In this document: positions 9,774 through 29,304 of the stretch, piece after piece
Numbering within the stretch: the stretch's first letter is position 1
How the letters are laid out: every line of letters begins with the position of its first letter
Assembly: GCA_041751815.1 (NCBI GenBank)
Contig: JBGSWT010000165.1
Span: 1 to 30,304 of the forward strand
Length of the DNA stretch: 30,304 bases
Reading direction: 5' to 3'
From: Pseudonocardiaceae bacterium
Lineage (GTDB): Bacteria > Actinomycetota > Actinomycetes > Mycobacteriales > Pseudonocardiaceae
Made by a program: the position numbers and the translations under genes
The notes under the pieces: generated by a model
The model's input: the letters and a program-made list of their open reading frames with translations, nothing else
What the model was told of the DNA's origin: nothing
The model's database searches: none

Positions 9774-11285
9774 TCAACATCGTTGTCTGGCATCGTTCGG
9801 TACGCACGGCAAGCCATCTCCGGACCTCAAGCCGAGCCACTCCACAGCGCCGCTAGATTTTACTAGCAGGATGGCTACCGCTTTGTTCACAGTGTTGCCG
9901 TTCTCGTCCAGTGAGATCCAGCCGCTCGCTCCGGGCACCGCGCCTGCCCCTCGCAGCCCATTGAATTGCTGGATAATCAGGCCAGGACTGTCACCATCTT
10001 CACCGAAAGCGGAACGGATTGCCTTAGTGACAATGACGATAGCGTCATGGCCAATGATCGCAGCTCCGTCATGCATCTGATCACCAGGAAAGAGCCTCAT
10101 ATAGCAACTGTCGCCCTCGCAGGTCTGATCAAGACGAGACATCGATGCCTGCGCAAAGCCCTCTGGCGCACCCGACCACGATCCCGGGTGAGCTTGACTC
10201 GTATATCTCACTGATACCTCGGCCCTACCGGCCGATACTATCAGCGCTTCCTGTAGATCAGGACTGTCCTTGACCTCGGCCGGGAACTCGACGGCATCCG
10301 CTCCAGCCACGATGCGGATCGGCACATCGAAGCACGGGCGATTGGGCACTTCTTTGACCAATTCCACTAGAGCTGGGGTACGGCCAGCGAAGAATATTAC
10401 GTCAGGCTTCTGCACACAAATATCACGTAGAATTGAGCTCATCTGCGTGCCCACGCCACCATTCTTCGAGTTGTATCGACCGTATGGTTTTAGCAACTCG
10501 TGATTCTCGTCAACGAATTTCTCCGCGAACGACTCCCCCAAGGACAAAAGGTAGGCATCCTCTTCGTTTCTGTCCTGTATAAGAAATCCGCGACGGGCAG
10601 TCGACTTCAAAAAGTACGCCACCGCTTTTGCCTGGTCGTTGTTAGTTGGCGCGACCCGCGCGAGGCCTTGTACTCCGCCGGGCACTTTAAGGGCAGTCAG
10701 CGTGTTCCCGGTCAAGCGAGATGCGATCACCGGAACTTTCCTGTACCTGAACTCATCGATCGTCTTTATTGTATCGCTCAGTGTCCGCCCGGTCACCACA
10801 ACAGCGACAAGCCGTTCGGGTGTGTTGACCTTCTCCACTAAGTCCGGGATCACTCTCTTCCATTTGCTCGACCCGTCGCCGTAGTTGGCGACTAAGAGTC
10901 GGATCAGCCGCCCATCGGTCGTCGTCTGATTTGCTAGCAGTTGAGCGACGTGAGCACCTTGTAGCTCATGCCGCACTAATTCCGTCAGTTTGTCGTCCGG
11001 CGACTTCGGCATGGGAACCAGGTAGCCGACGCTGACTACCGCTTGGCCCAAGCTGTCGACGCGCTCGTTCTCGCTGCGGATCTTGTGCAGCACATCCGCC
11101 AGTTCCGGGCTCAGTGTAACCCGCCCGTCCGTGACACCAATGCATTGGCCGTCGACCCAGTCAACGTCAGGTCCACACGTGTACGAAATATTGTAGACCC
11201 AAAAAGTCACACCCGCTACGAGCAACACGCTGATTACGCCAGCAGTCAATTTCACCCATTGGGAAAATTTTCCACGCATAGTCAT
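9774..11285 (-). CDS. Membrane-anchored type-1 periplasmic-binding-fold protein (branched-chain amino-acid-binding-like), no cognate ABC genes nearby
   Basis: N-terminal TM (AGVISVLLVAGVTFWVY), C-x10-CIGVTDG, ELQGAHVAQ, RLLVANYG, ARVAPTNNDQA, PDVIFFAGR and GASGWISLDENGN. Confidence 0.8.
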   Translation of the reverse strand: MTMRGKFSQWVKLTAGVISVLLVAGVTFWVYNISYTCGPDVDWVDGQCIGVTDGRVTLSPELADVLHKIRSENERVDSLGQAVVSVGYLVPMPKSPDDKLTELVRHELQGAHVAQLLANQTTTDGRLIRLLVANYGDGSSKWKRVIPDLVEKVNTPERLVAVVVTGRTLSDTIKTIDEFRYRKVPVIASRLTGNTLTALKVPGGVQGLARVAPTNNDQAKAVAYFLKSTARRGFLIQDRNEEDAYLLSLGESFAEKFVDENHELLKPYGRYNSKNGGVGTQMSSILRDICVQKPDVIFFAGRTPALVELVKEVPNRPCFDVPIRIVAGADAVEFPAEVKDSPDLQEALIVSAGRAEVSVRYTSQAHPGSWSGAPEGFAQASMSRLDQTCEGDSCYMRLFPGDQMHDGAAIIGHDAIVIVTKAIRSAFGEDGDSPGLIIQQFNGLRGAGAVPGASGWISLDENGNTVNKAVAILLVKSSGAVEWLGLRSGDGLPCVPNDARQRC

Positions 11286-11315
11286 CGAGGCCTCACTTGA
11301 CGCACGTAAAAACTG

Positions 11316-13247: not shown

Positions 13248-13292
13248 ACCCGTTCTCCGTCTACTCGCTTTTTTCGTAAATCGGACGAGCGG

Positions 13293-13481
13293 TCAGCAGC
13301 AGCGGGTGGCCGGTTGGTTCTCAGCGAGCTTACTGCGCCACCGTTCGAATTCGGACGGGGTCATGACCGGCTGGTCTGGATGTAACCGTCGGTGTCGTGC
13401 AAGGTAGTGGTCGTATCGCGATTCCCCGCTGAATTCACGCAGGTACCAGCGGAGTCCACGAAACAGTTCAGCGATGCTCAT
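13293..13481 (-). CDS. ybdD: YbdD/YjiX-family small protein (CstA partner)
   Basis: WYLREFSGESRYDHYLARHRRLHPDQPVMT and C-terminal RCC; overlaps the cstA stop. Confidence 0.85.
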   Translation of the reverse strand: MSIAELFRGLRWYLREFSGESRYDHYLARHRRLHPDQPVMTPSEFERWRSKLAENQPATRCC

Positions 13482-15639: not shown

Positions 15640-15878
15640 GATGAATTCTGCTTGCTCGGGCGCCGGTGGAGGAGGACATAGGCGATCACCATGAGTAACG
15701 GGGTGAGGAGCACCCAGATCGCCTGGTAGGCGTAGAAGTAGGGAAGCCCGAGAATCCGGGGGGTGCCCGCTGCGTAGAGCGGAACGCACAACAGAGCGCC
15801 ACCGGGGGCCAGCAGGCAGGCCCCCGCGATCACCTGCCGCCACACCTCGCGCCGACGCTGCGGCGTCTGCTCTGCCAT
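15636..15878 (-). CDS. DUF3311-family small membrane protein
   Basis: VPLYAAGTPRILGLPYFYAYQAIWVLLT, two TM helices; RBS GGGAG then ATG 15878. Confidence 0.8.
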   Translation of the reverse strand: MAEQTPQRRREVWRQVIAGACLLAPGGALLCVPLYAAGTPRILGLPYFYAYQAIWVLLTPLLMVIAYVLLHRRPSKQNSS

Positions 15879-15925
15879 CGTCGTTACTCCCACGCTCGCC
15901 GAGGCGACTTGTGCTCGGTCGACGT

Positions 15926-15955
15926 GGTATCACCTCAGTGCGGCCCGGGGTTGAC
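15926..15955 (-). promoter_or_regulatory. Putative ECF-sigma promoter for the DUF3311-cstA arm
   Basis: Minus strand reads GTCAACCC-N14-GTGATACC; same spacing as the + strand copy at 15981. Confidence 0.6.
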
Positions 15956-15980
15956 TCTGTTCCCTCGATCAGGTGATACG

Positions 15981-16010
15981 GTCAACCCTTGGTCTGATCA
16001 AAGCGATAAC
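15981..16010 (+). promoter_or_regulatory. Putative ECF-sigma promoter for the symporter-sigma arm
   Basis: Plus strand reads GTCAACCC-N14-GCGATAAC; an AAC-containing -35 is typical of ECF promoters. Confidence 0.6.
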
Positions 16011-16074
16011 CCCACGTTGGCGCTCCGCCATCTTCCGGCACCCAGCCGAGGTAGCGTCGAGTGGAGGTGCTGCG

Positions 16075-17610
16075 ATGGCCGATCCGGTCGCCCTCGCCGC
16101 GTTGGCCGCGGTGTTAGGAGGCACCTCCTCGCTCGCGCTGTCCGCGCGATGGTTCCGTCAGCGCGACAAACTGCCCGCGTTGGAGGGGTGGGCGCTCGCC
16201 GACCGCCAGTTCGGCCCCGTCATCAGCTGGTTCTTGCTTGGCGGCTCGATCTTCACGGCGTACACGTTTGCGGCGGTTCCGGGCTTGGCCTATGGGGCGG
16301 GCGCGCTGGGATTTTTCGCGCTTCCGTACACCATTATGCTCTGTCCCCTGCTGTTCGTACTGCTTCCACGCTTGTGGTCAGTTGCCCGGCAACATGGTCA
16401 TATCACCGTCGCTGACTACGTGCGGGACCGTTACCGCTCGCCAGGTCTGGCCCTCGCGGTGGCGCTCACGGGCATCCTCGCCACCATGCCTTATCTCGCC
16501 CTCCAGTTGCTCGGCATTCGAGCCGTGCTGAACGCAGGAGGGATCTACCCCCGAGGCTTCACCGGCGACCTCATTCTCGTGGCAGTTTTCGCCGTCCTCG
16601 CTGGTGCGACGTATCGAAGCGGCCTGCGCGCCCCGACCGTCATCTCGCTCATCAAAGGTGCTCTGATCTTCGGAGCTGCCTTGGGTGCGGTCGCAACGGT
16701 CCTGATCCAACTCGGCCCGCCAAGCACGATCTTCGACGCGGCGTCAAGCAGGCTTCCGCCAGCCGGTGGAGACGGGTTGCTTCTGGACCCGGGTCTGTAT
16801 ACCGCGTTTGCCAGCCTGGCGCTCGGCTCCGCTCTCGCTCTGCCGATGTATCCGCATGTGCTCACCGCCACGTTCGCCGCCGATGGCCCGGATTCCCTAC
16901 GCCGTGCGACGATCGCGCTGCCAGCATGGACCGCGATCCTCGGCCTTTTCGGGTTTCTCGGGATCGCTGCGCTCGCGGCTGGTGTCGAAGCCCCACTTGG
17001 CAATGCCGAAGCTGCCGTTCCCCTTCTGGTGGCCGACCTGATGCCCAGCATCCTCAGCGGAGCGATCTTCGGTGCGCTCGCCGTCGGCGCACTCGTGCCG
17101 GCCGCCGTGATGTCGGTCGCGGTCGCCACCTTGTTCGTCCGCAATATCTACGTCCCGTACTTCTTCCCCACCGCCACCCCGAAGCACGAGGTGAAGGTCG
17201 CCAGAGTCGTCTCGTTGATTGCGAAAATCGGCGCGCTCGCATTTGTGTTCGGACTGCGCGACCAGGACGCCATCAACCTCCAACTCCTCGGCGGAGTATG
17301 GATCCTGCAGACCTTTCCCGCGGTGGCGATCGGACTTTATAGTACTTGGTTACATGGACGCGCCCTGCTCGTGGGCTGGATGGTGGGCATGATCATCGGA
17401 ACGCAGCTCGTTGTATCGGGCGGATTCTCCTCGCTGGTGAACATCGGCACCGCTCGGTGGCCGATCCACGTCTACGCCGCCCTGCTCGCCCTTATCATTA
17501 ACCTCGCGATCGCCGCGGCACTCACCCCAGTGCTGCGTCGATACGATCTCCGCGGTGGGCTCGACCCGACCGCGACCGACCTGAAACCACCGACGGGTGG
17601 TGTCACATGA
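16075..17610 (+). CDS. Sodium:solute symporter (SLC5/SSS), MctP/YhjB monocarboxylate-permease-like
   Basis: EGWALADRQFGPVISWFLLGGSIFTAYTFAAVPG, ATMPYLALQL, YPHVLT, ALVPAAVMS, INLQLLGGVWILQTFPA; RBS GGAGGT before ATG 16075. Confidence 0.9.
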   Translation: MADPVALAALAAVLGGTSSLALSARWFRQRDKLPALEGWALADRQFGPVISWFLLGGSIFTAYTFAAVPGLAYGAGALGFFALPYTIMLCPLLFVLLPRLWSVARQHGHITVADYVRDRYRSPGLALAVALTGILATMPYLALQLLGIRAVLNAGGIYPRGFTGDLILVAVFAVLAGATYRSGLRAPTVISLIKGALIFGAALGAVATVLIQLGPPSTIFDAASSRLPPAGGDGLLLDPGLYTAFASLALGSALALPMYPHVLTATFAADGPDSLRRATIALPAWTAILGLFGFLGIAALAAGVEAPLGNAEAAVPLLVADLMPSILSGAIFGALAVGALVPAAVMSVAVATLFVRNIYVPYFFPTATPKHEVKVARVVSLIAKIGALAFVFGLRDQDAINLQLLGGVWILQTFPAVAIGLYSTWLHGRALLVGWMVGMIIGTQLVVSGGFSSLVNIGTARWPIHVYAALLALIINLAIAAALTPVLRRYDLRGGLDPTATDLKPPTGGVT

Positions 17611-18104
17611 CCGAGCCAAGCGACCGGGCGCAGGCCGTCGCCACGCTCTACGAGGCCCACCACCAAGAATTGACACGGTACGCGCGCCGGCGCGGAGCAG
17701 ACGATCCCGAAGACATCGCAAGCGAAGCCTTCGATCTGCTTTTGGAAAGTGGCCGAAGAATCGATGCACCTCTGCCGTGGCTGCGCAAGGTGATTCGCAA
17801 TCTGATCTGCAACCGCGTCCGGCGTATCGAACGCGATCGGAAGTTCGCTGTCCTCATAGGGTCGGAGCCCCCAACAGCACCGTCGGCCGAGGACAAAGCC
17901 GCCCTCAGCGAGGATCAACGATCCATGATCAACGCTCTCAAGCAGCTGTCGCCCCGACAGCGGGAGGTACTCGTATTGCGGTTTTATTATGGTCGTTCTG
18001 AAGAAGAGATCGCGGCCGAACTGGGGATCGCGGCAGGAACCGTCAAGAAGCATGCCCACCGCGGAATAGAGAAGCTGAAAAAGACCCTGGAGGGGGAGAA
18101 GTGA
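17607..18104 (+). CDS. ECF RNA polymerase sigma factor (SigE-family-like)
   Basis: Region 2 (PEDIASEAF..WLRKVIRNL) and region 4 (LSPRQREVLVLRFYYGRSEEEIAAELGIAAGTVKKHAHRG); ATGA-coupled to the symporter. Confidence 0.9.
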   Translation: MTEPSDRAQAVATLYEAHHQELTRYARRRGADDPEDIASEAFDLLLESGRRIDAPLPWLRKVIRNLICNRVRRIERDRKFAVLIGSEPPTAPSAEDKAALSEDQRSMINALKQLSPRQREVLVLRFYYGRSEEEIAAELGIAAGTVKKHAHRGIEKLKKTLEGEK

Positions 18105-18382
18105 CCACCGGCGACACCGAACAGCGTCTACGCGACGCCCTTGGCGCGCTCGCCGCCGAGGTTCACCCTGATCCTGGCGCTTACCGCCGGGCCATCACCG
18201 GATGGAAGCGGCGCGAGCGCAAGCGCCGGCTCATCGTTGCGATCCTGAGCGCGCTCATCTTCACGACCGCCGACGTGATCGGCCTCTGGGCGCTCAATCA
18301 AGCCAACTCGAACTCCCACATCATCTTCTCCGACTCATCCACCGTCGAACACCGTCCCATCGGACGCCTTGGCCAACCTTGA
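18101..18382 (+). CDS. Small single-pass membrane protein, putative anti-sigma factor
   Basis: GTGA-coupled to the sigma gene; EQRLRDALGALA helix, basic KRRERKRR stretch, one TM helix, short tail. Confidence 0.65.
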   Translation: MTTGDTEQRLRDALGALAAEVHPDPGAYRRAITGWKRRERKRRLIVAILSALIFTTADVIGLWALNQANSNSHIIFSDSSTVEHRPIGRLGQP

Positions 18383-18412
18383 TGGGCGACGAGAAGAGCC
18401 GCCTCCCGCCGA

Positions 18413-18802
18413 CTATGGGAGGTTGGCAGTGCCAATTTCTGGATCGATCGCGCAGCCCACTCGTAAGGCGGCAGCGGCCAGGCACCGGTCAGCGGTCCAC
18501 AACGCGGCATCAGCAGTCAGTTGCGTTGCCGCGAGCAGCTGTACGTCGACATAGCCGATGCCAAGCCCGAACAGCTGATGACGATCGATCAGGGCCATGA
18601 CTTCCTCGTCAGCGGCGACCGTCGCTTGCGGCAGGCCGCCCAGCAACCTCATCATCTCGTGACGTTGAGCTAGGTGACCGAGAGCCAGCTCGCCGACCAC
18701 CCAGGGGTGACCGAGGACCAGGTCGCCTTCAAGCAACCGCACGAGGGTCGGCTGACCCGTTCGCAGGTGATCGATCCAGATCGACGTGTCGACGAGAATC
18801 AC
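18413..18802 (-). CDS. vapC: VapC PIN-domain toxin
   Basis: MILVDTSIWIDHL, GEL, GIGYVDVQLLA and LWTAD acidic PIN motifs. Confidence 0.92.
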   Translation of the reverse strand: MILVDTSIWIDHLRTGQPTLVRLLEGDLVLGHPWVVGELALGHLAQRHEMMRLLGGLPQATVAADEEVMALIDRHQLFGLGIGYVDVQLLAATQLTADAALWTADRCLAAAALRVGCAIDPEIGTANLP

Positions 18803-18996
18803 AGAGATGCGGTGCGACGCCTCGGGATCTCGGTCAGCGCGGGCTCAGTCCCGCCGAGCCTGGCAAGCCGGCGGGCGCTCTCGCGCTGGATGAGGGCCCG
18901 TAGGGCGTCGCGGACCAGAGCGCTCTTTTCCATGGTTCCAGTCAGACGCTGCGCCTCCGCGACGAGATCGTCATCAAGGGCAAGGGTTGTCCGCAT
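18799..18996 (-). CDS. vapB: VapB antitoxin (RHH-like)
   Basis: MRTTLALDDDLVAEAQRLTG..KSALVRDALRALI; GTGA overlap with vapC. Confidence 0.9.
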   Translation of the reverse strand: MRTTLALDDDLVAEAQRLTGTMEKSALVRDALRALIQRESARRLARLGGTEPALTEIPRRRTASL

Positions 18997-19013
18997 CCCT
19001 GTCTACCTCCTAA

Positions 19014-19045
19014 GTGGCATCATCTGACGCATCTGATGATGCCAC
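19014..19045. promoter_or_regulatory. Inverted repeat upstream of vapB, probable autoregulatory operator
   Basis: GTGGCATCATC-N10-GATGATGCCAC, perfect 11-bp arms, 17 bp upstream of the vapB ATG. Confidence 0.75.
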
Positions 19046-19127
19046 AATCCGTGCCGCTCCGCTGCTCGGGGAGTGCCTCGGCCTGTCCCACACCGAACTC
19101 CAGCGAAGGGAACACAGCACAGTCGCC

Positions 19128-19211
19128 CTGCTCCAACAGTCGGCGGTATATGGGCAAGCAGTCAGAGAGCTGATTCAACGGGCACTCACTGAGCTTCAAG
19201 GCAAGCCATGA
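19128..19211 (+). pseudogene. Possible 3' remnant of an XRE/DUF5753-type regulator
   Basis: LLQQSAVYGQAVRELIQRALTEL-stop resembles the terminal helices of these regulators; nothing recognisable upstream. Confidence 0.3.
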
Positions 19212-20098
19212 TCGCGACCCTGCAGCACGCCGATCCCACGTTCAGCAGGCTGCACGGGTCGACTGTCCGAGGCGCACCGATCGGCGATGGTGGCGGCGCA
19301 GGGGCTGCCGCTGGTCGATCGGCCAGGCCCGACGTCCACGGTGACCCGAACGCCACCAGCAGTCCCGCGGCGAGCACGAGCACTGCCACCACGGCGGCCA
19401 CAACCCACCACCTCCGCTTCCCTTGCGATCGCGGCCCGGGTGGATCAACAGGCACCCGGCTCTCGGAACCCGGCCGCGAGAAGCGCTCCCTACCCAGGCC
19501 GAGATGGCGGCCGTCTCGGCGACGCATCGCGATCACCGTCGGTGCGATTCTCGCGCTCGTCGCAACCAGTGTGATAGTCAGGGCGGGCCTGCTCACCCAC
19601 TCCACCCGCGCGACCCCGGTTGACGGTGGCTTTGAGACACCGCAGATTCCCTCGTACACCACTGCGACGGTTGCTGCGGGCCAGTCCGTTGGGGCCTGGA
19701 CGGTGACGCAAGGAAATGTTGATCTTCTTGGCTCTGGTTTCTGGTCGGCAGCCGAGGGGACTCAGTCCGTGGACCTCGGCGGGCTTGTCAACGGCGCCAT
19801 AGCACAGACCTTCAGCACGATTCCCGGCCAGACTTACATGGTTGAATTCGCGCTGGCTGGAAACCCCGACGGACCCCCGAGCGTGAAGGCCGGCCGCGCT
19901 TCGGTGAACGGACAACCCGTCATGGATTTTACCTCAGACATCACGGGGATGAGCCGTTCCAACATGGGTTACCGCAAAATGAGGTTTTCTTTCACGTCGT
20001 CGGGTACACAGACGACCATTGAGTTCGCGAGTACCAGTGGCACCGCGTGGGGTCCAGTCATCGATGACGTGAGCGTCGCTCCGGTCAGCCTGCGATGA
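19208..20098 (+). CDS. Choice-of-anchor C / DUF642-domain membrane or secreted protein; authentic 5' end probably lost (credible coding from ~19470)
   Basis: RRRIAITVGAILALVATSVIV TM, then GGFETP, WTVTQGNVDL, FWSAAEGTQSVDL, FALAGNPDG, WGPVIDDVSV; the first ~85 codons are antisense to another fragment. Confidence 0.75.
   Translation: MIATLQHADPTFSRLHGSTVRGAPIGDGGGAGAAAGRSARPDVHGDPNATSSPAASTSTATTAATTHHLRFPCDRGPGGSTGTRLSEPGREKRSLPRPRWRPSRRRIAITVGAILALVATSVIVRAGLLTHSTRATPVDGGFETPQIPSYTTATVAAGQSVGAWTVTQGNVDLLGSGFWSAAEGTQSVDLGGLVNGAIAQTFSTIPGQTYMVEFALAGNPDGPPSVKAGRASVNGQPVMDFTSDITGMSRSNMGYRKMRFSFTSSGTQTTIEFASTSGTAWGPVIDDVSVAPVSLR
19240..19460 (-). pseudogene. Fragment of a membrane-anchored protein (TM, Pro-rich linker, DPCSLL motif)
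   Basis: KRRWWVVAAVVAVLVLAAGLLVAFG TM, then PAAAPAPPPSP, then TVDPCSLL (DUF3558-like start); no credible start or continuation. Confidence 0.45.
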
Positions 20099-20122
20099 GT
20101 TCGAGGCGCGGCCGGCTTGGGA

Positions 20123-20920
20123 TCAGTCCAGCAGCCGAAGATCCGGCGGCACCAGCGTGGTGGACAGCAACAGCTCGAGTATCAGGTTGTGATTGAGCGC
20201 GTTACCGACCGGTTCACCGACCTCGTCCCGAGCCAACCCGGCAACACCATTTCCCGCCAGCCGGGCTCGCACCACGGCGACGACGTGCTCGGCGCGCTTG
20301 GGGGTCCAGCCCGCCGCCGGCTGCAGCCGCGCCAACTCGACGGCGACGTTGCTCCACGACAGCGGCTGCGGATAGGCCTCGTGACCCAGGTAGCGCTGGC
20401 CCAGCGCCACCAGCACCAGGCGTTCGCGATCCGAAAGCTCCCAGATCGTGCCGGTGTGGTGGGTGATGTCGTCGAAATGCACACCCGTAGGGCCGGTCGG
20501 CGCTGTCCCGGTGACCCGGACCTCCAGCAGATGTTCCCGGTCGCGCCCGGCGCGGATGAACAGCGGCGTGTACGCGACCGGCAGCGGCTCCTGATGGCCG
20601 CTGAGCAGCAGTTGGGAACCGGGCAGGCGGATCGGCAGGTGTCCGGTGTTGTGCACCAGCCATCGCCGACCGTCGTGGTGTATCAGCCCGTGCCGGCGGC
20701 TGACCCCTGGGTCGCCTGCGCCCACGCACACGTGCACGTCCGGCTCGTTGCGGCCGAAGATCACCGTGAGCCGAGCAGTCGGCGCCACGCTAATACCGCC
20801 ACGGTCACCCAACGCGAACAACGTACCCGTCGGTACCGGCGGCAGGCCCCGAGCCAGGCTCCCAGTTCCGGCCGGCAACAATTGGACCCCACTGATGGGC
20901 AATCGCTTGAGCCGGCTCAC
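20123..20920 (-). CDS. FHA-domain protein with C-terminal HTH-like region
   Basis: FGRN...VSRRHG phosphothreonine-binding motifs; LSDRERLVLVAL helix; RBS GAGGA before GTG 20920. Confidence 0.85.
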   Translation of the reverse strand: MSRLKRLPISGVQLLPAGTGSLARGLPPVPTGTLFALGDRGGISVAPTARLTVIFGRNEPDVHVCVGAGDPGVSRRHGLIHHDGRRWLVHNTGHLPIRLPGSQLLLSGHQEPLPVAYTPLFIRAGRDREHLLEVRVTGTAPTGPTGVHFDDITHHTGTIWELSDRERLVLVALGQRYLGHEAYPQPLSWSNVAVELARLQPAAGWTPKRAEHVVAVVRARLAGNGVAGLARDEVGEPVGNALNHNLILELLLSTTLVPPDLRLLD

Positions 20921-21229
20921 CTGGTGATCCTCTCGGAGTGCTAGGCAGGGGGTCGCTTGGGTGCGGCGGCCTCAGCGAGCAGGTGTCCAGGCTCCCAGTC
21001 GAGTAGTCGTCGAGCCCCCAGCGCCCGGCGTTACCCGTGTGGTGCACGGCGGCGGTGCCAACCGCACGGTAGCCGAGTCCGCGGCGCCAGGTCCTGCGGG
21101 TGAGCTGGCTGAGCTGATCCGCGATCAGCCGCCGTTGGGTCCGCATGCCCCAGATCGTCACAGTCCCCGGTCGGGACCCCTCCCGGGGCGAAGGCGTTCC
21201 GCTCACCGACCAGTCGACACGTTTGCAGG

Positions 21230-22264
21230 CTATCTTGGAAATGACTGGGCGGGCACCGTCGAGGTCCGGGCGTTTCCTCCTATTCTGGGCTGTAGACCGA
21301 CAGACTGTACGGTGTATTCGATCCCGCCCCTGATCGAGATAGTAGTAAATTCTGCTGGCGCCTCGAAGCGTTCGAACTGACAGGATCGGGTGAAGGTCTC
21401 GAGCTGATCATCCCAGTCTATCCCGGAGGTGTAGAACAGCTCATAGTTGCCGTCATTAATTTTTTCGACCGTGGCCTCCGACTCCTTGCTGACGTAGACG
21501 GATACGATCGGCTCGCCACCCTGCACGAGTTTGACGACGGCGTCATGTTCGGTGTCGTTGTCGACCTTGAGTTGCCCGCTTCCGGTACGCCGCTGGCTTT
21601 CGACGAGCTGACCATTGGACAACCGTCGTTCCGGCAGCGGCGTGGGGGCGGGGAGGAATTCCCCCCACTGGTAGCTCGCACCCAGTCGGCCCGAGCCGAG
21701 AGCCCCACCCACCGTCCTGAGGTTGTCCACACCTGGCGCGTTGCTGACCGCTGCGAGAATGGACGGCGTCGCACACAACTCCATCGACTCAATCTGACCG
21801 CTGAGCTGGGACAAATCAGTGGTGAGCTGCCGCAACCCCGCGAGTAGGTCGCGGTGGACCGCCAGCGCCGCTACGGGTGGGTCGACATCCAGCTGTCGCG
21901 CCGCTTCCGACGCGGCCGTGGAGGCTTGTGTCAGCTCTGTGGCTGCTTCCTCGGCCGATCCCGCTGCGGTGAGCCGCCCGAAAGCCGGCGCCATCACACT
22001 GCTGGCGCTCTGGAGTTTCTCCTGGTAAACGGCGGGAGACAGGGCCGCCGGGGGTGCCGAGATTGGGACTCCGGGGCGCGGTACTGGCAACGACGTGACC
22101 GACTCCGAGGGCTCGACTGAGGAGCATCCCGCAATCGCGGCAGCGCACATCCCCAGGGCGATGATGGCTCTCGACGCGCCCGTCGCGCGAGGCGCGTCCC
22201 ACCGGTTCCCCGTGGTTCGCCCTGACCGATCGGCCGGTAGCTGCTTGTGTATTTTGTCGCTCAT
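21230..22264 (-). CDS. Putative lipoprotein with helical region and C-terminal beta-sandwich domain
   Basis: Hydrophobic AIIALGMCAAA then lipobox IAG-C; C-terminal GQLKVDNDTEHDAVVKLV..GNYELFYTSGIDWD..GGNART; start ATG 22264, 23 bp after the TIR stop. Confidence 0.75.
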   Translation of the reverse strand: MSDKIHKQLPADRSGRTTGNRWDAPRATGASRAIIALGMCAAAIAGCSSVEPSESVTSLPVPRPGVPISAPPAALSPAVYQEKLQSASSVMAPAFGRLTAAGSAEEAATELTQASTAASEAARQLDVDPPVAALAVHRDLLAGLRQLTTDLSQLSGQIESMELCATPSILAAVSNAPGVDNLRTVGGALGSGRLGASYQWGEFLPAPTPLPERRLSNGQLVESQRRTGSGQLKVDNDTEHDAVVKLVQGGEPIVSVYVSKESEATVEKINDGNYELFYTSGIDWDDQLETFTRSCQFERFEAPAEFTTISIRGGIEYTVQSVGLQPRIGGNARTSTVPAQSFPR

Positions 22265-22287
22265 CGAACCCCCGCTCAACGAGTGCA

Positions 22288-23151
22288 CTACCACGGAATC
22301 AAATGGCTAAAGGCGGAATTTATCAAGGCCCGAGTTGCCGGCGGAGAAAGGCCTGCCGACACACCTTGTCGGTAGGTGACAATCGGGGATTTACCGTCAG
22401 GACCGAACGATTCTATCTGCACCTCAAGATCGATCGTGCTACCGTTCATAATATGCGAGTCGACCAGTCTCCCACTGTCGACGGAGATCTGTTTTCCGGC
22501 GCTCATGAGCCGGTAGTAGAAGCGCATACCTATCATTCCATCAAATTTCTCCTCGATGTCGGGCAGTGCGAGTGCGTCACGCACCAAACCCTCGAGATCC
22601 TGACCGGTCGATTCCTCTGGCACAACAACTGTATGCGCAACAGACAGCGCTCTATTGCGTACGTAGAGGACGATAGTCCGTTGGACTTCACCATTGTCCG
22701 TGGCTGGCGACTGGGGCGCGGGGAGCACGGGCTCGCCCACTGCAATGTCTCGACGCCAGGTAGCAGCAAGTTCGCGCACGAGCTCATCCCAATCGCCGTC
22801 GAAGGCGTCGAGGTACTGGCGCGGCGCCAACAGCGGGGGTAAGGGAGTCGTGTCCAGCCGCACGATGAAGAGAAAGGATCGTCGTTCCTGGAGCTCGCGA
22901 ACGAACGCGGCAGACCACTCCGCGTCGACCCACGGACGATCACGAGAGGCTTGCGACCACAGGAGCACGAAGTAGTCCGACTGAGTGAGAGCACGGTTGA
23001 TGTCAAGCACGATGTTTCCGCCCGGTGGAAACACGAACGCCTCAATCTCGCACTCGCTGAGATCCCGACGAAAGCGCTCGGCCGTTAGTCGGTCTTTCCC
23101 AGCAAAGGAAAGGAAGACCCGTGGTCGACGTAGATCAGATGTGTGCCACAC
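22288..23151 (-). CDS. TIR-domain protein (287 aa) with C-terminal ubiquitin-like domain
   Basis: RBS GGAGG plus GTG 23151; RVFLSFAGKD, SDYFVLLWSQAS, PWVDAEW (catalytic-type Glu78), VRLDTTPLPPLL; residues ~159-247 align by eye with ubiquitin. Confidence 0.85.
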   Translation of the reverse strand: MWHTSDLRRPRVFLSFAGKDRLTAERFRRDLSECEIEAFVFPPGGNIVLDINRALTQSDYFVLLWSQASRDRPWVDAEWSAAFVRELQERRSFLFIVRLDTTPLPPLLAPRQYLDAFDGDWDELVRELAATWRRDIAVGEPVLPAPQSPATDNGEVQRTIVLYVRNRALSVAHTVVVPEESTGQDLEGLVRDALALPDIEEKFDGMIGMRFYYRLMSAGKQISVDSGRLVDSHIMNGSTIDLEVQIESFGPDGKSPIVTYRQGVSAGLSPPATRALINSAFSHLIPW

Positions 23152-25753
23152 GTTGCCTCCGCCGGTCAAGGCTGCGGCGCAGCGAGCGACGGATCGGATT
23201 GGCTCTGGTCTGCCAGCCCGAGTCTCCGTACAGCGTCCAGCAAGCCCATCGAGCCGGATGGTTGACGGCAGGCAAGTCCACCGCGATGCCAGGTGCGCCC
23301 CGGTACACGTCGTGCTGGGCTTGCTGCAAGGCGAAATCGCGCGGCAGGTAGCGGACGTTGCGTTCAAAACGATCGAGCACGGTCGCCGCGACGGAATCCT
23401 CAGCCCTCCACCTGGCCGCGACCACTGCTGCGGCACCTGCGTGGACAGCAGCCCGGACGAAACCGATCCGTTCGTCTCGTCCGGTGCGGTGGGCCATTCC
23501 CGATTCGCACGCGCCGATCACGAGAGTTCCGCAGCCACGTAGATCCATCCGCTGCAGCTCCTCGGGCCGCAGCCGACCGTGCTGCCCATCGGGAGCCAGC
23601 TGCAACCATGACTTCGCCGGATCGTCATGGTCGTGTTGACCGTGACTGTCGATCCTCACCTGACGATAGCGGCGGAGTTCGAGCTCCGTCTGCACCGTGC
23701 TCCAGGTAGCATGCGCTCCGCTCAGCACCGTATGGGCGCGCCTGCCTGCGGCCGTGGTCAGCCCGCCGGCCGGCGGACTGACCAGAAGCAGCCGGTCACC
23801 GCGTAGCCGAAGTGATCGACGATGCAGCGGGAGCCTGGCCGACAGGCAAGGAAGGTCGGACAGAGCGAACTGAAGGCCAAGCGGCTCAGTTTCTCCGGTA
23901 ACCGTCAGGGCAGCGAACGGGATATCCGACAGCTCCCCTCCGGCCACGATCGCGATCCGGCGGACATGCGGGGAAAGCCTGAGCCTCCGGACCACCGCAT
24001 CGATACCGACTTGGGCGGCAATCTCTTTGAGTGATGCGTTGAACTCGCCACCCTTTATGCTGGCTTCGAGTGATTCGTCACTGCTCCAGCATGCCATGAG
24101 GGCGTCGACCGCCGCCGTCAGCTTCTTTCTTCCGGAAGGGACGCACTTGTAATAGAGCAGTCCCCTGCCCACAAGGGCGTGATGCACCCGGTCGGGAGTG
24201 GAATGGATTATCCAAACCGCCTGAGCTGGAGGTAAACGATCGGCCACGTCGCTCACCCATCGCCAGGCACCGTTGAGATCACTCGGCCTCGGGAGATCCC
24301 GGGCGAGACCTGCTTCATCGGGAAGGATCCGCCCTAAAATCGTTGCTCCACGAGCGGCTTCCATGGCAACTACGATCGCGGCCGTCGCCTCGGGACCGCG
24401 ATCGTTCAGCTTCTGCGCAGCGGCGCGAATCCGTTCGTCGTGCTCGCCTGGAACGGCCTGCAACATCCCGACTCGTACCTCATCGGAAATTTGACGCCCA
24501 GCGATGTGTTCTTCAAGGCGATGCGCTTCGGCCCAGCACTCCGCAGCCCGTTCGTCGGCATCAAGCCGGTCGAATGCGTGGCCCAGCGATCGCAGCGCGC
24601 AGACCCGCACCTCGACAAGCGCGGCTGCCGAAGCACGAGTGACAGCCTCAGTCAAGTGGCCGACGGCAGCCTGAGTGCAGGGATGGCTCTCGGAAAGCTC
24701 GGGTCGGGATAGCTTGAGTTCTCCCGCGGCCAACTGCCAGGTCGCGATATCACGGTCTGTGTGTGCCAGTGGATGAAGCTCATCTAGCCGAGACTCAGCC
24801 TCCTCAAGCCGAGTCTCGATGATCAGTCGGCGGGCGTGCTGGACCCGTCGATCAAACCGCGGAGAGAGGGCATCTCTGCTCGCCTCAGTGGCGGACAGCC
24901 GGTCTACCGCCGCGGCTGCTGCCGTCGGATCGGCCGATACCGCTGCGGCGGCCTGGAGTGACGGGAGTAATCGTTCAGCGAGATCGTCCTGACGCATGAG
25001 CCGAAGCAGCAGGATCAGCTCGTACCACACGTGCCAGCCCAGCGCCGGGTCGATATTGTGATCGACACCGCGCCATAACACCATGAAGGCGCGCTCATAG
25101 CGCAGCTCGCGCCTCAGTGCCACGGCGAGCAGGAGGTAATCCGAAACGGTCTGCGGTGGCTCACCAGACAACACGTCAGATGCCGCCGGCTCGTCACCCT
25201 GCCGTACCTCGATCTGGAGCCGGTCAAGTTCGATGGCCGCCACGCCAGCGTGATTGCCGGCCTCCAGGAAACCCCGCCGCGCCGCATCCAAGTGATTGAC
25301 TGCCCTGTCGAGGTCCCCCATATCAGCCGCCGCCAGCCCTTGCACCCGGTGCAGCCTTGCGCTGTCGTCCTGGGGCAGGAGATGCGGCTGGCCTTCGAGT
25401 GCGGTGCGGATGGCGGCGGCATCGGCGCCAACGCCGCAGTGGTCGCCAACAGAGGAACGGATCTGAGCGCGCAGCAAGCGCAGCGAAATGTGGCTCGGGC
25501 CGACGTCCACATACTCGGTGCAGCGCTGCAGCGCCAGCGTGACGCGCCCTAGCTTTCGCAATCCCTCGGCATGGTTGGTAGCCAACGCCGACCAGAGCGT
25601 GGGATCTCCTGCGGCCAGCCCAACGGCCTGCTGGTAGGCAGCGTCGAAGCCCGCCGCGTCCGCCCGCGCGAACGCCTCACGAGCTCGGGTGACCGCAGCA
25701 GCGACCGGGGTGCCGGGTTGCAGCTCGAGCGGATGCCTCGTGGTTGGTGGCAT
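23135..25753 (-). CDS. TPR-CHAT (caspase-like, CD clan) protease
   Basis: N-terminal helical repeats; RIAIVAGGELSDIPFAAL, VRIDSHG (His codon 23642-23644), LVIGACESG (Cys codon 23507-23509), GAAAVVAARW, HPARWACWTLYGD. Confidence 0.9.
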   Translation of the reverse strand: MPPTTRHPLELQPGTPVAAAVTRAREAFARADAAGFDAAYQQAVGLAAGDPTLWSALATNHAEGLRKLGRVTLALQRCTEYVDVGPSHISLRLLRAQIRSSVGDHCGVGADAAAIRTALEGQPHLLPQDDSARLHRVQGLAAADMGDLDRAVNHLDAARRGFLEAGNHAGVAAIELDRLQIEVRQGDEPAASDVLSGEPPQTVSDYLLLAVALRRELRYERAFMVLWRGVDHNIDPALGWHVWYELILLLRLMRQDDLAERLLPSLQAAAAVSADPTAAAAAVDRLSATEASRDALSPRFDRRVQHARRLIIETRLEEAESRLDELHPLAHTDRDIATWQLAAGELKLSRPELSESHPCTQAAVGHLTEAVTRASAAALVEVRVCALRSLGHAFDRLDADERAAECWAEAHRLEEHIAGRQISDEVRVGMLQAVPGEHDERIRAAAQKLNDRGPEATAAIVVAMEAARGATILGRILPDEAGLARDLPRPSDLNGAWRWVSDVADRLPPAQAVWIIHSTPDRVHHALVGRGLLYYKCVPSGRKKLTAAVDALMACWSSDESLEASIKGGEFNASLKEIAAQVGIDAVVRRLRLSPHVRRIAIVAGGELSDIPFAALTVTGETEPLGLQFALSDLPCLSARLPLHRRSLRLRGDRLLLVSPPAGGLTTAAGRRAHTVLSGAHATWSTVQTELELRRYRQVRIDSHGQHDHDDPAKSWLQLAPDGQHGRLRPEELQRMDLRGCGTLVIGACESGMAHRTGRDERIGFVRAAVHAGAAAVVAARWRAEDSVAATVLDRFERNVRYLPRDFALQQAQHDVYRGAPGIAVDLPAVNHPARWACWTLYGDSGWQTRANPIRRSLRRSLDRRRQRVAHI

Positions 25754-28700
25754 TACTCCTCACAACCGGGGATGTTCTCGTCGATGTCCGGGCAGACGAG
25801 GAGAACTTGCCCACTGGGTGCCGGAATGACTCCACTGCCAGGGCCGGCGGCATTGCCGCTACCGCTCACTCGCCACCACTCCGCGCCATCGTGGATGCGG
25901 ATGTCAGGTTGCGAGATCATGCCCTCAGGGCGTGGAGGAGACTCTGCTGCCCGAATGATCACATTGTCCTCGAGCGGTAATGCATCGCGGAGGATCGCAC
26001 CGTTCTCGACAGTGAGCATGGGTCGGTAAAGGTAGATATCGCCGCTGGTCTTGTTCAGTAGTTCATCGAGACTACTTCGTTGTATCGAGCCAGGACGTTC
26101 CGTGAGTCCGCTCAGATCGACGTGGAGGACGCGGTCGCCCTCGATGCGAAACAGCGGTGCCGGCTGGGGAGAACCCGGGCCGATCGCCTGCTGCACCCGA
26201 TTGGTCCACGGATGGTTCGCGGCAGCAAGGATCACTTCGTTGGCACGGACCAACGCCACGCCATCGTCGCCGAGACGGACACCGCGGAGAAACCCGTCGT
26301 TGGCCTCGGCGGCACTGCGCATCACTTCGGCAACGCGGGGATAGTCCCGGAGCAAGGCGGCACCTTCGACGGTGCCGTTGAAACCCACGATCGGATCGTC
26401 GTACCGAGCCAGGACGCGATCACCGATCTGACTGACGGCGCCAGTTCTGCCGTCCGGGGTGGTCACCTGCACGGTGCGAGCATTGGACTCAGGCACGCCG
26501 GCCGCGATGACTCGGGGCGGCTGACCACCGCTCGGGGGAGTGATCTCGATCCAGAGCGGGGGTCCGCCGTCTACCGGCGGCAACTCAGGGCGCTGCAATT
26601 CAGGGCGCTGCGAGAACCTGCCCTCGAAGAATGTTGCTTTGCCAGTTGCCGGGTCCGGCCCACCCAGGCGAAAGGCCATCTCCTCGCCGGGCGGCGCCCC
26701 CTCCTTGGTGATCGAGAGCCAGGGCTCGTCCGGGCCACCGACCTTATACATGGCCCGGCCGTTGGCGTCCTGGTAGCTGTACAGCACTGCGTCCGTGGCG
26801 GATGGCAGTTCCGCGGAAGGCTGGGACACCAAACGGTCCTGGATCGACTCCAACACTCGACGAGCGCGGTCGACCAGGCCTGGCCGCCACTGGATCATGA
26901 CCGCATCGACCTCCTTGCGCGCTACCAATTCCCCCAGCTCATAACCCTGGAACTCGACGCGCTGCGAAATCTGCCCCCGGTCAGCGGCAACCTCACTCTT
27001 GAGCTGGCGAGTAGCAGCCTCGGTGCGCAAGACCTTCAAGCCCCCGAAGGGGACCACCCGGCGGCCGTCGGCCACGACGTCGATGAGGGCGCGACCGTCC
27101 GCCGTTGTAGAAAACGTGCGTTGGAGGCTGTCCACAACGCGGCCGGCGCCGTCGATCGACACGTGTGTGATCTGCCCGGACCCGGTCAACGGGTCGAAGC
27201 GGGATGCCTCGTCGACCAGGCCACCACGGCGGACCGGCTCGGGCAGGTCGGCGTGGAAACTCCGGCCATCTTTGCGCTGGATGATGTCGCCGAGCGAGAC
27301 GCCTCCAGCGATCAACGGAATTCCGCAGTTCTCAAAGACTGCTGATGGCGCTTGCCGGATAGCTTCCTGCTGCGCCGACGGGGGCGTGACGAACTCGATC
27401 TGTGAACGCTGCCTCAGTTCGCCGTGCTGCGTGTACCAATCTTTGAACCGCAGATCTGACCGGATCGCGCCGTCGTCCAGCTGTGGAAGCCCCGCTGGGG
27501 TCTGAGAGATCAGCCACTCCAGGGCGCCACTCCACCGCATGATCTGGTCAAGCCGCTGGTACTGCGGCTCGTAATCAGCGACTGCCTGGTAGTGCTGGTC
27601 CCACCAACGCATGCCCCGGCCGATCTCGAAGCTCGGCTCAACCTCGGTGCCCCCCTTTTCTTCCGACCGGGAGAACAGCCGCGTCGCCAGTGCACCGATG
27701 TTGACTCGGTCACGATTGAAGGCAAAGCCGGATTCGTTCTGGCCGAACCACAGCCGCCCGTACTCAAGGTTTGGGCGCTCAGGTCCGGCGCACTGACTCC
27801 ACGGGGTCACCGCGTTCGAGTTTGGGACGAACCCAGCGACCGCCTGGGTAGGAACACCAGTGCCGACCCCGCTGTGCGCCCAGCTCTTGGCCACGTAGTC
27901 GGTGTAGAAGAGGGTCATCCCGACCTTGGTGCCTTCCAGCCGCCCGTCGTAGCGCGCCTGGCTGTAGGCCGGCCGGTCGCTGACAAGCAGGTAAAGAGCC
28001 CAGAGCTGGGTGCGGTCCGAGGGCAGTCCTGCCTCAGCCAGAGCCGCAGGCGGCGGAATGTTGTCCCAGAGTGCATCATGGACCACATTGGCCAGCTCGT
28101 CGGCAGTGAAAGGCGAGCCTCGCCAATCGCGGGAGATAAGCCGGTCAGCAAGCTCCGGGCGCAGGCCCGGGAGCACCGCGAGAATATCGTCTCTGGTCTG
28201 TAGTGGCCCTGGGTCCAGCGAAAAGGCAGGACGGAACTCAGAAGGTGGCTGCAGGTATCCTCGTTGGATAACCGAGATGTCCTCGACGTCCAGCGGCGCC
28301 GCCGGCACGTCGGGCCAGTTCCATCCCCCCGCCCAGATCTCCGTTCCGCGCACCTCCAACCAAGACAGATGCCGGGTTTGCGCCAAGAAGTCGGTCAATC
28401 CCCTGGTCTCATCGATGCGCATCGTGACGAACCCGCGCGCCGACCGAACCTCAGAGGTGGTTCCCGGTTTCGCGTGAGTCAGCTCGATGGCCTGAGCGCC
28501 GGGATTGATCTGGTAGTGGTGTACCTGAACCTGCTGCGGGTCGGCACCAGCATCGGACCGGTGCTGGTCGATGAGCAACCCGATCGTACGAGCTTCATGT
28601 GGATCGCCGCGAGGGACCAACACATGCAGCACACCGCGTCCGTCGTACAGCATTCGCCCCGGCCCCGTGGGCTGTCTGGACAGATCGGCGAACGCCAAGT

Positions 28701-29010
28701 CCCGAACCGGCACGGTGTCATAGGTCGCATCGCGGAGGCGCGCGGTGTCCAACTCCAGATACGACGCCAATCCGGTCCGCGCCCAGTCCCGCAGCTGCTC
28801 CTCCGCCTCGGCCGGCTCCAGCCCGCTGAGCCGGCTCGCCGCTCCGGCATACGAGACGACGGTGGGATCCTCGATTTTTTCAGCAGGCCTGCCGGTGCAA
28901 CTCACCGACGCGAGCAGAACACCGACCGTGAGGATCAGGACCGCCAGCCGCCTCCAGATGATCCGGTGACGTGGGGATCCGCCCTGACGGGAATGCGATG
29001 ACGTGCTCAT
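25753..29010 (-). CDS. Large (1085 aa) exported or membrane-anchored protein of unknown function; central region possibly DUF1598-like
   Basis: Basic N-terminus plus LAVLILTVGVLLASVSC (signal anchor or atypical lipobox); central FSLDP..YSQARYDGRLEGTKVGMTLFYTDYVAK..RLWFG..WWDQHYQAVADYEPQYQRLDQIMRW; TAATG overlap with the CHAT gene. Confidence 0.8.
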   Translation of the reverse strand: MSTSSHSRQGGSPRHRIIWRRLAVLILTVGVLLASVSCTGRPAEKIEDPTVVSYAGAASRLSGLEPAEAEEQLRDWARTGLASYLELDTARLRDATYDTVPVRDLAFADLSRQPTGPGRMLYDGRGVLHVLVPRGDPHEARTIGLLIDQHRSDAGADPQQVQVHHYQINPGAQAIELTHAKPGTTSEVRSARGFVTMRIDETRGLTDFLAQTRHLSWLEVRGTEIWAGGWNWPDVPAAPLDVEDISVIQRGYLQPPSEFRPAFSLDPGPLQTRDDILAVLPGLRPELADRLISRDWRGSPFTADELANVVHDALWDNIPPPAALAEAGLPSDRTQLWALYLLVSDRPAYSQARYDGRLEGTKVGMTLFYTDYVAKSWAHSGVGTGVPTQAVAGFVPNSNAVTPWSQCAGPERPNLEYGRLWFGQNESGFAFNRDRVNIGALATRLFSRSEEKGGTEVEPSFEIGRGMRWWDQHYQAVADYEPQYQRLDQIMRWSGALEWLISQTPAGLPQLDDGAIRSDLRFKDWYTQHGELRQRSQIEFVTPPSAQQEAIRQAPSAVFENCGIPLIAGGVSLGDIIQRKDGRSFHADLPEPVRRGGLVDEASRFDPLTGSGQITHVSIDGAGRVVDSLQRTFSTTADGRALIDVVADGRRVVPFGGLKVLRTEAATRQLKSEVAADRGQISQRVEFQGYELGELVARKEVDAVMIQWRPGLVDRARRVLESIQDRLVSQPSAELPSATDAVLYSYQDANGRAMYKVGGPDEPWLSITKEGAPPGEEMAFRLGGPDPATGKATFFEGRFSQRPELQRPELPPVDGGPPLWIEITPPSGGQPPRVIAAGVPESNARTVQVTTPDGRTGAVSQIGDRVLARYDDPIVGFNGTVEGAALLRDYPRVAEVMRSAAEANDGFLRGVRLGDDGVALVRANEVILAAANHPWTNRVQQAIGPGSPQPAPLFRIEGDRVLHVDLSGLTERPGSIQRSSLDELLNKTSGDIYLYRPMLTVENGAILRDALPLEDNVIIRAAESPPRPEGMISQPDIRIHDGAEWWRVSGSGNAAGPGSGVIPAPSGQVLLVCPDIDENIPGCEE
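26581..26610. repeat. 15-bp in-frame tandem duplication (QRPEL x2)
   Basis: CAACTCAGGGCGCTG followed by CAATTCAGGGCGCTG (1 mismatch). Confidence 0.8.
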
Positions 29011-29304
29011 GGAGCTCCCTCCACAACGGCGCTACTGACGTTCTGTGGGTCCCCGATCACGGCCAGTGAGGTGTCCGTCACGATCCAAACCAGCATGGGA
29101 ATGAGGTCTCGCAACTCCCGATAAATACGTCATCCTCAACCCCGATCGTGTGTACTGCCGGGACAAGATCGACTTCGACACGCCGGCGCGAACTCACCGA
29201 CTAGCGTCGAGCCGACGGGATCGGCGTGACGGTCATTGAGAAAGACAAACCGTGGCATGAGAACTCGGAAGGCCAGCCCGCAGGTCCTGAGCCCGCCAGC
29301 CAAG

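Follow-up and report, generated by a model that had tools for sequence, protein, structure and literature searches.

Do four adjoining genes in a Pseudonocardiaceae bacterium form a single functional system, and if so, which of them belong to it and what might it do? The genes lie on contig JBGSWT010000165.1 of assembly GCA_041751815.1 (our contig C165), which is part of a 65%-complete metagenome-assembled genome (MAG) and was analyzed over its whole stretch of 30,304 nucleotides (nt), hereafter the window. The list of open reading frames (ORFs) and their translations place four consecutive minus-strand ORFs between positions 21230 and 29010. Gene 1 (25753..29010, from ORF and translation) encodes a protein of 1085 amino acids (aa; P0001) that we call the giant, and gene 2 (23135..25753, from ORF and Pfam) encodes an 872-aa protease of the TPR-CHAT type (P0002). 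Gene 3 (22288..23151, with a GTG start at 23151) encodes a 287-aa fusion of a TIR domain and a ubiquitin-like (Ubl) domain, identified by Pfam, structural model, and Foldseek. Gene 4 (21230..22264, from ORF and translation) encodes a 344-aa lipoprotein. All cassette coordinates given below are likewise on the minus strand. An initial annotation took the four genes for one conflict or signaling operon. We find that the giant and TPR-CHAT genes form a constant pair, to which TIR-Ubl is joined as one of several alternatives and the lipoprotein as an optional neighbor. As to function, we put at about even chances the reading that this conserved actinobacterial cassette is an envelope-linked conflict system (abortive infection or cell death), in which the giant and CHAT would be the constant sensor and switch and proteins of the form X-Ubl the exchangeable effectors.

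Gene order and co-occurrence

Loci were gathered from species genomes, named isolates, and JGI metagenomes, and the four window proteins were placed in them by tblastn. The giant is present in 4 of 24 genomes of the window's genus. A search across the order found it in only 3 of 400 sampled genomes, all of one family, and co-occurrence was therefore measured on metagenome contigs. Thirty distinct loci held enough DNA downstream of the giant to be counted. The TPR-CHAT gene directly follows the giant on the same strand in 29 of these, and the sole exception (L019) has a truncated giant. The 29 loci span Pseudonocardiaceae, Catenulispora, Kutzneria, and soil metagenomes at protein identities of 40–80%; among named organisms, examples come from Catenulispora acidiphila (Caci_6703 onward) and Kutzneria albida. 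A full-length TIR-Ubl gene comes after the CHAT gene in 21 loci (40–85% identity), and stop/start overlaps between cassette genes are frequent across loci. At three loci (L015, L016, and L022), one reading frame encodes both CHAT and TIR-Ubl; such fusions account for 4 of 78 cluster representatives of the Ubl family described below.

Pairwise distances of the giant, CHAT, and TIR-Ubl also correlate, with r of 0.83–0.91, a figure inflated by shared ancestry. This fits inheritance as a single unit, with relatedness contributing as well. Conserved order, translational coupling, and natural CHAT-TIR-Ubl fusions together bear out the functional linkage that had been proposed for these genes. By contrast, the probability that they are chance neighbors with no functional connection is negligible, given order and strand kept in 29/30 loci, overlapping stop and start codons, gene fusions, and correlated distances. 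Because the identical order recurs across dozens of unrelated contigs, the four-gene arrangement is far beyond chance.

The window shows the same close packing, and its junctions, read from the sequence, agree with the initial annotation. A Shine-Dalgarno-like GGAGGGAG (29015..29022) precedes the ATG of the giant. The giant and CHAT genes meet at GAGGAG-TAATG, where stop and start overlap by 1 nt at 25753. The CHAT gene, whose TGA stop is at 23137–23135 (23135-23137 in forward numbering), overlaps the TIR-Ubl gene by 17 nt, and a GGAGG motif lies 6 nt 5' of the GTG at 23151. A gap of 23 nt (22265-22287) separates TIR-Ubl from the lipoprotein ATG. No terminator-like sites were found within the four-gene block.

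The gene that follows the pair is variable. In six loci (L017, L040, L042, L043, L047, and L048), a shorter giant and an orthologous CHAT gene are followed by a gene for a secreted vWA protein, with no TIR. The 78 cluster representatives carrying the Ubl and its C-terminal tail were scanned for further domains, giving TIR in 59, Trypsin_2 in 3, and PNP_UDP_1 in 1, while 3 bore EAD7, an adaptor that in some of these proteins sits between the TIR or trypsin domain and the Ubl. Three non-canonical fusions (trypsin-Ubl, PNP-Ubl, and TIR-EAD7-Ubl) could be located, and all stand beside a giant-CHAT pair whose giant is 34–36% identical to that of the window. TIR-Ubl is thus one of several exchangeable third components. 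Because the giant-CHAT pair persists while the third gene varies, we regard the giant and CHAT as the constant core and X-Ubl as an effector family addressed to that core.

The lipoprotein

The product of gene 4 carries two conserved Cys and, behind a hydrophobic stretch, a canonical lipobox (I-A-G-C). It has no Pfam match, and a search of the ESM Atlas returned only unnamed actinobacterial lipoprotein clusters. The lipoprotein occurs in six cassette loci and in two positions: it follows TIR-Ubl in the window, L010, and L018, which form the window's clade, and precedes the giant in L011, L032, and L036, of the Catenulispora clade. A hidden Markov model (HMM) of these six lipoproteins found no homologue in the remaining ~24 loci. 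Within the window's genus, the lipoprotein is present in 9/24 genomes, against 4/24 for the giant, and its orthologues occur without the giant, CHAT, or TIR-Ubl in G015 (100% complete, 72% identity), in G004 (97% complete, 64%), and likewise in G007, an unpublished genome. Directly upstream of the G015 lipoprotein gene is a 19-residue TIR remnant with 79% identity to TIR-Ubl residues 91–109 (L050, G015:C111, 7917-7973). This is probably a deletion scar, and it suggests that the cassette was lost here and the lipoprotein retained.

In contrast to the initial annotation, then, the four genes do not make up one unit. Co-location holds for giant and CHAT and, in 21 loci, for TIR-Ubl, but the lipoprotein joins them in only six, and its orthologues persist in cassette-free genomes of the genus. 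It is a facultative neighbor and not part of the core. It accordingly appears highly improbable that the four genes are an obligatory system, with the giant and the small lipoprotein both serving as surface sensors, even though the lipoprotein adjoins the cassette in two distant clades at differing positions and is only 23 nt from TIR-Ubl in the window. Still, its recurring association in two arrangements leaves room for what may be an accessory role.

In the close relative L010, as in G015, a MerR-family gene adjoins the lipoprotein gene. In the window, this MerR gene (5297-6397) and the lipoprotein gene are separated by ~15 kb (6400-21200), which hold a hydrolase, an HTH protein, a flavoprotein, a gene pair of lower GC, cstA, an SSS transporter, an ECF sigma factor, and DUF642; the separation suggests an insertion or rearrangement. 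The lower-GC pair (9774-13247, minus strand) encodes proteins of 503 aa, with a weak periplasmic-binding-protein match, and 643 aa, with no Pfam match. Its GC content is 0.55–0.59 vs. ~0.65, and it may be a separately acquired segment.

The giant

More than 170 homologues of the giant were found at 42–77% identity, every one of them annotated as hypothetical and none with a Pfam domain. They come from Pseudonocardiaceae (Amycolatopsis, Kibdelosporangium, Saccharothrix, Kutzneria, and Umezawaea), Catenulispora, Frankia, Actinomadura, and many soil metagenomes, and those nearest to the window giant are from Pseudonocardiaceae MAGs. The window giant had no match in Pfam, NCBIfam, or PADLOC and none in the ESM Atlas, and its sequence profile gave nothing significant against PDB sequences. 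Its AlphaFold model (pLDDT 82.5, pTM 0.83) matched nothing in the PDB or BFVD at E ≤ 0.001, with TM scores <0.2, in a whole-chain Foldseek comparison of a kind that can miss single domains. The giant belongs to a new family, and its modeled fold appears unlike PDB and BFVD entries at the level of the whole chain.

At its N-terminus, a basic stretch leads into a hydrophobic helix (residues 17–37) and Cys38, which by translation make up a signal-anchor or lipoprotein signal (residues 17–38, 28897..28962). An N-terminal hydrophobic segment is found in 36/42 homologues, and a lipobox-like Cys follows it in 29/42. The window's S-V-S-C departs from the canonical lipobox, and the giants of L054 and L055 have lipoprotein signals like those of the window's clade. 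From their N-termini, most giants look like lipoproteins, and this probably holds for the window giant too. The conserved body begins right after this signal, at S-Y-A-G-A-A. By alignment, the most conserved part of the ectodomain is residues 46–600 (27211..28875), where mean column conservation is 0.67 vs. 0.48 for residues 771–1085 and many D, H, R, W, Y, and C are invariant.

One homologue gives a clue to the topology of the family. The giant of L052 consists of EAD7, a single transmembrane helix, a Pro/Thr-rich linker, and then the conserved body, an order which places the body of the family outside the cell and the N-terminus in the cytoplasm. As predicted from its sequence, this variant spans the membrane, with a domain that recruits effectors on the cytoplasmic side. 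Such a build suggests a trans-membrane link. EAD7 was also looked for in the trypsin-Ubl protein adjoining this giant, and none was found there. The initial annotation had a surface cue acting on the cytoplasmic proteins: the EAD7-transmembrane-ectodomain homologue speaks for such a route, but signaling across the membrane by a lipid-anchored giant is left unexplained. The placement of the four products themselves is supported, with CHAT and TIR-Ubl cytoplasmic and the giant and lipoprotein extracytoplasmic by domain content and N-terminal signals.

A further candidate variant was set aside. P0079 (1512 aa) is a giant cut at about residue 885 and continued in frame into an NB-ARC/TPR STAND protein. 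Because the join falls mid-giant, the signal peptide is kept, and a single Logan contig carries it, P0079 is probably a deletion product or an assembly chimera.

The TPR-CHAT protease

Gene 2 matches Pfam CHAT (PF12770) over residues 584–844 at 2.1e-26 (93.5 bits vs. a cut-off of 24), and the helical region N-terminal to it has a weak TPR_12 match and holds invariant polar residues. As the initial annotation had recognized, the domain has a His/Cys dyad: catalytic His704 (codon 23642..23644) and Cys749 (codon 23507..23509) are invariant in 23 homologues and again in a set of 18. By profile, the closest solved structures are the Csx29 chains of Craspase, which align over only ~110 residues around the active site. 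Every CHAT homologue ends in a basic tail, G-P-x-R-R-x-L-R-R (residues ~845–872, window 23138-23220), which in the natural fusions runs directly into the TIR domain. This tail could be a membrane-binding or linker element.

The TIR-Ubl protein

Gene 3 matches TIR_2 (PF13676) at 7.7e-21 (75.3 bits vs. a cut-off of 28), and Pfam together with the homologue alignment places the TIR domain at residues 12–128 (22768..23118). Its conserved glutamate, noted initially, is confirmed: Glu78 (codon 22918-22920, of catalytic type) does not vary among 18 homologues and lines up with the W-x-x-E glutamate found in AbTir (W-T-N-Y-E) and Cat1 (W-C-W-D-E). We take this glutamate after the W-x-x motif to be the catalytic residue of the TIR domain. 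Foldseek matched the TIR part with a probability of 1.00 to AbTir, the SPARTA TIR, and the TIRs of Toll-like receptors, and the best structural matches include the NADase effectors SPARTA TIR-APAZ, AbTir, and TIR-STING. Profile and glutamate thus point to a TIR of the NADase-competent type.

The C-terminal half is ubiquitin-like, as first proposed. An AlphaFold model built on 18 homologues (pLDDT 82, pTM 0.74) runs from the TIR domain through a b-b-a-b-b-b beta-grasp (residues 159–250, 22402..22677) to a C-terminal helix at residues 270–284. The beta-grasp assignment is backed by model topology, Foldseek, phmmer, and hhalign. Foldseek matched it to the UBL of Ddi2 (2n7d, 6.6e-4) and that of At2g32350 (2kan, 1.5e-3, TM 0.63), and a single ubiquitin unit aligns in register, weakly (BLASTP 0.002, hhalign E 0.016). 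An R-L-x-x-A-G-K-Q...G-S-T stretch of ubiquitin type is recognizable, and one family member matches PF00240 at 7e-6 and YukD at 1e-6.

An exhaustive phmmer search with residues 144–287 against 1.84 billion cluster representatives showed the Ubl-plus-tail module to be rare, with 88 proteins found, eukaryotic polyubiquitins included. Its signature comprises the beta-grasp, an F-x-P that follows the final strand, a variable linker, and a helix with A-F-x-H-L at its end (22291..22344 by the alignment of cluster representatives); this helix is a candidate docking tail. His283 and Leu284 are ≥90% conserved in the 78 cluster representatives, and the A-F-x-H-L motif is kept across TIR, trypsin, and PNP fusions. 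There is no terminal Gly-Gly, since linker and helix come after the domain, and no E1, E2, or JAB was present among the 25 commonest Pfam families of neighboring genes. This absence of a Gly-Gly end and of conjugation genes nearby argues for an integral, docking-type Ubl. We propose on these sequence patterns that the Ubl-plus-helix module marks proteins as belonging to the giant-CHAT system.

Does the TIR domain act as the effector or as the maker of a signal? We favor the effector role on two grounds: trypsin-like or PNP-type domains that carry this Ubl tail can take the slot of the TIR domain, and the best structural matches of the TIR domain include NADase effectors. NADase, nucleosidase, and protease are typical effector domains, which argues in the same direction. 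The reverse arrangement, by analogy with Thoeris, would make TIR-Ubl the sensor and the maker of an ADP-ribose-derived messenger, which TPR-CHAT would bind and then kill the cell as in type IV Thoeris. Precedents exist: in type IV Thoeris, a TIR protein is paired with a protease of the caspase-like kind that N7-cADPR, a cyclic ADP-ribose (cADPR), activates (bioRxiv 10.1101/2024.10.24.620036), and for type VIII Thoeris a TPR domain has been proposed as the part that perceives cADPR (bioRxiv 10.64898/2025.12.03.692087). The invariant polar residues of the CHAT N-terminal region could likewise bind a ligand. Yet the CHAT gene is kept where trypsin-Ubl, PNP-Ubl, or vWA and tubulin-like genes replace TIR, so CHAT does not generally depend on a TIR product, and the Thoeris-like direction is disfavored. 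Moreover, Thoeris keeps the TIR and varies the effector, the reverse of what is seen here; the Thoeris protease carries its sensor domain at the C-terminus, whereas here a TPR-like N-terminal region precedes a C-terminal CHAT; and the ThsB_TIR Pfam match is only 0.04. We consider this direction of signaling decidedly unlikely.

Distribution, turnover, and neighborhood

The cassette shows signs of turnover. The window's own genome (G000) holds a second, decayed CHAT/TIR-Ubl copy on the minus strand of contig C623 (L057:556-1965), where one 469-aa frame joins CHAT residues ~95–195, a TIR-Ubl without its C-terminal helix, and a further piece of CHAT that has Leu in place of the catalytic His and a frameshift in the Cys region. 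An unrelated MAG has a similar rearranged arrangement (L008:9749-11235). Patchy distribution and decayed copies resemble the behavior of accessory conflict genes.

Flanking genes are not conserved between loci, save for recurring STAND, SLATT, NUDIX, WYL, and kinase genes. HTH-NB-ARC-TPR STAND proteins made up 6 of the 82 neighbor ORFs scanned, which came from 19 loci. Separate HTH-NB-ARC-TPR genes neighbor the cassette in at least five loci, and a SLATT gene (SLATT_1/SLATT_3/DUF4231) lies ~5 kb upstream of it in Kutzneria albida (L013:3747-4649) and in a metagenome (L035:3731-4684).

A different set of neighbors is found in other loci. In L017 and L042, the vWA gene is followed by one for a Tubulin_2 (FtsZl1) protein of ~1050–1120 aa; in L025 and L054, the Tubulin_2 gene precedes the giant; and an OmpA protein and a P-loop protein are encoded upstream of the giant in Kutzneria and L035. 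Tubulin_2, partner ORFs of ~790–855 aa, and secreted vWA genes stand on either side of giant-CHAT at L025:4207-9924, L054:17777-21485, L017:1404-9288, and L042:15324-21030.

These neighborhoods raise a non-immune explanation, by which the giant and CHAT would belong to machinery, related to FtsZl1 systems, that serves the envelope, membrane remodeling, or development in filamentous actinomycetes, with TIR-Ubl a regulatory or quality-control addition. It would account for the company of giant-CHAT with Tubulin_2, secreted vWA, OmpA, and P-loop genes (L013, L017, L025, L035, L040-L048, and L054), for the high conservation of the giant ectodomain, and for hosts that are mostly filamentous actinomycetes. 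Housekeeping morphogenesis genes, though, are not expected to be as patchy as this cassette is even within one genus or to leave decayed copies. The third component also includes classic killing domains (TIR, trypsin, and PNP), some with EAD7, and no FtsZl1, vWA, or OmpA gene is near the cassette within the window. For these reasons, we regard the non-immune explanation as unlikely, if worth keeping in view.

Proposed mechanism

How might an envelope-linked conflict system of this composition work? In the scheme that we propose, the giant would monitor some envelope cue, and a change in the envelope would be relayed to the TPR-CHAT protein, the switch. TPR domains commonly bind C-terminal peptides, and the TPR-like region of the CHAT protein would hold the effector by its Ubl-plus-helix tail. 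CHAT would then release or activate the effector, either by cleaving a linker or by inducing assembly, whereupon the TIR domain would destroy NAD+ and growth would stop. The lipoprotein would be an optional neighbor in this scheme. That CHAT cleaves TIR-Ubl, that NAD+ is depleted, and that the role is directed against phages, all of which were part of the initial annotation, is purely what we infer. A more far-reaching version sees here a bacterial counterpart of the route from death receptor to caspase to effector, in which a ~1000-aa extracytoplasmic sensor, of a fold without a solved counterpart, would signal envelope events across the membrane to TPR-CHAT, and TPR-CHAT would deploy TIR NADase, trypsin-like protease, or PNP-type nucleosidase effectors addressed by Ubl plus helix as a new class of adaptor; we offer it tentatively, with the balance tilted against it.

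Several observations weigh against a conflict system of this kind. The main gap concerns communication with the cytoplasm by a fully lipid-anchored giant: cleaved lipoprotein giants would keep no cytoplasmic segment from which to relay a change to CHAT. No CHAT cleavage site is fully conserved in the TIR-Ubl linkers, and only 13/18 sequences have a Tyr/Phe-Arg in their tail linker. Pfam found no EAD domains on the four window proteins. With its strong conservation, the giant ectodomain resembles an enzyme, or a protein that binds a conserved self molecule, more than it does a phage sensor under fast evolution. About one-third of loci are tied to the FtsZl1, vWA, and OmpA genes of "membrane remodeling," and these ties could point to a non-immune envelope function. 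PADLOC gave only generic kinase matches among the 82 neighbor genes, with no clear defense-island signal, and phage and plasmid collections held no giant homologue.

If the conflict reading is true, a family located outside the cell is genetically locked to a cytoplasmic caspase-like protease, which would give a handle on how envelope events are coupled to regulated cell death. The Ubl would then be the "address tag" that exchangeable killing domains carry, and the ubiquitin fold would be put to an unexpected use that does not involve conjugation. CHAT and TIR modules would also be linked to the long-unexplained FtsZl1/vWA neighborhoods. TIR, caspase-like, and ubiquitin-fold domains are all hallmarks of eukaryotic innate immunity. 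Because the system is small (three genes), has defined catalytic residues (Cys749 and Glu78), and occurs as a natural fusion, it is directly testable.

Comparison with known systems

The initial annotation recognized no named system in this architecture, and PADLOC, NCBIfam, and literature searches agree. PADLOC and NCBIfam gave only weak, domain-level matches (BovA 19.8, Csx29 17.5, and retron-TIR 28.9 bits), well short of the family cut-offs. Borvo, a single-gene CHAT defense, was considered and rejected, as the BovA match of 19.8 bits covers only model positions 552–677 of 711. We did not find the cassette described in Kaur et al. 2020 and 2021, the Thoeris papers, or the FtsZl1 paper, and the Catenulispora locus tags gave no paper. 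The TIR, CHAT, and Ubl domains are already known, as is the logic of a constant core with variable effectors. By contrast, the giant family, the Ubl-plus-helix address module, the strict tie to TPR-CHAT, and the link to FtsZl1 were not found in the models and literature searched.

Craspase, the type III-E CRISPR gRAMP with the TPR-CHAT protease Csx29, which cleaves Csx30, resembles the cassette in combining TPR and CHAT and in having a neighboring gene product as likely substrate or partner. Unlike Csx29, however, the CHAT protein scores only 17.5 bits against the NCBIfam model (NF041237, cut-off 300), and no Cas7-11, CRISPR, Csx30/31, or other cas genes were found in the window or among the commonest neighbor families.

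Type IV Thoeris likewise has a TIR protein and a clan-CD caspase-like protease (ThsE) in one operon, with abortive infection presumed. That system consists of two genes: a short TIR makes the signal, and the protease carries its sensor domain at the C-terminus. The cassette differs, with ThsE compared by description, in its N-terminal TPR-like region, its Ubl-tailed and swappable TIR, and its ever-present ~1000-aa extracytoplasmic protein.

A parallel in logic exists with two kinds of system treated by Kaur, Burroughs, Iyer, and Aravind (2020, PMC7159879): the NTP-dependent conflict systems coupled by EADs, in which EAD7 is a cytoplasmic homotypic adaptor, and the EACC1-caspase system of multicellular bacteria. 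In common are a constant core with rapidly exchanged effectors (TIR, trypsin, and caspase-like), a membrane-associated sensing component, and hosts that are mainly filamentous actinobacteria. EAD7 itself is seen in some members, on the L052 giant and on TIR-EAD7-Ubl and trypsin-EAD7-Ubl proteins, but not on the four window proteins or on the effector adjacent to the L052 giant. The cassette departs from these systems in having no MoxR-vWA, STAND, or GTPase core, and in place of the small EACC1 transmembrane protein it has a large ectodomain protein as the constant partner. Its caspase-like domain is C-terminal rather than N-terminal, and its adaptor, Ubl plus helix, is not among the EADs.

In about one-third of loci, giant-CHAT stands amid Tubulin_2, secreted vWA, OmpA, and P-loop genes, as in the FtsZl1 neighborhoods (Makarova and Koonin 2010, PMC2875224). 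The window, by contrast, is without Tubulin_2, vWA, and OmpA, and neither CHAT nor caspase is mentioned in the text of PMC2875224. The cassette Ubl, for its part, has the beta-grasp fold in common with Ddi2/Rad23-type UBL proteins and bacterial YukD, and like them it would be an integral, non-conjugated, and probably docking module. It is set apart from them by a ~12-residue insertion, by its extra conserved C-terminal helix, and by its fusion to TIR, trypsin, and PNP domains.

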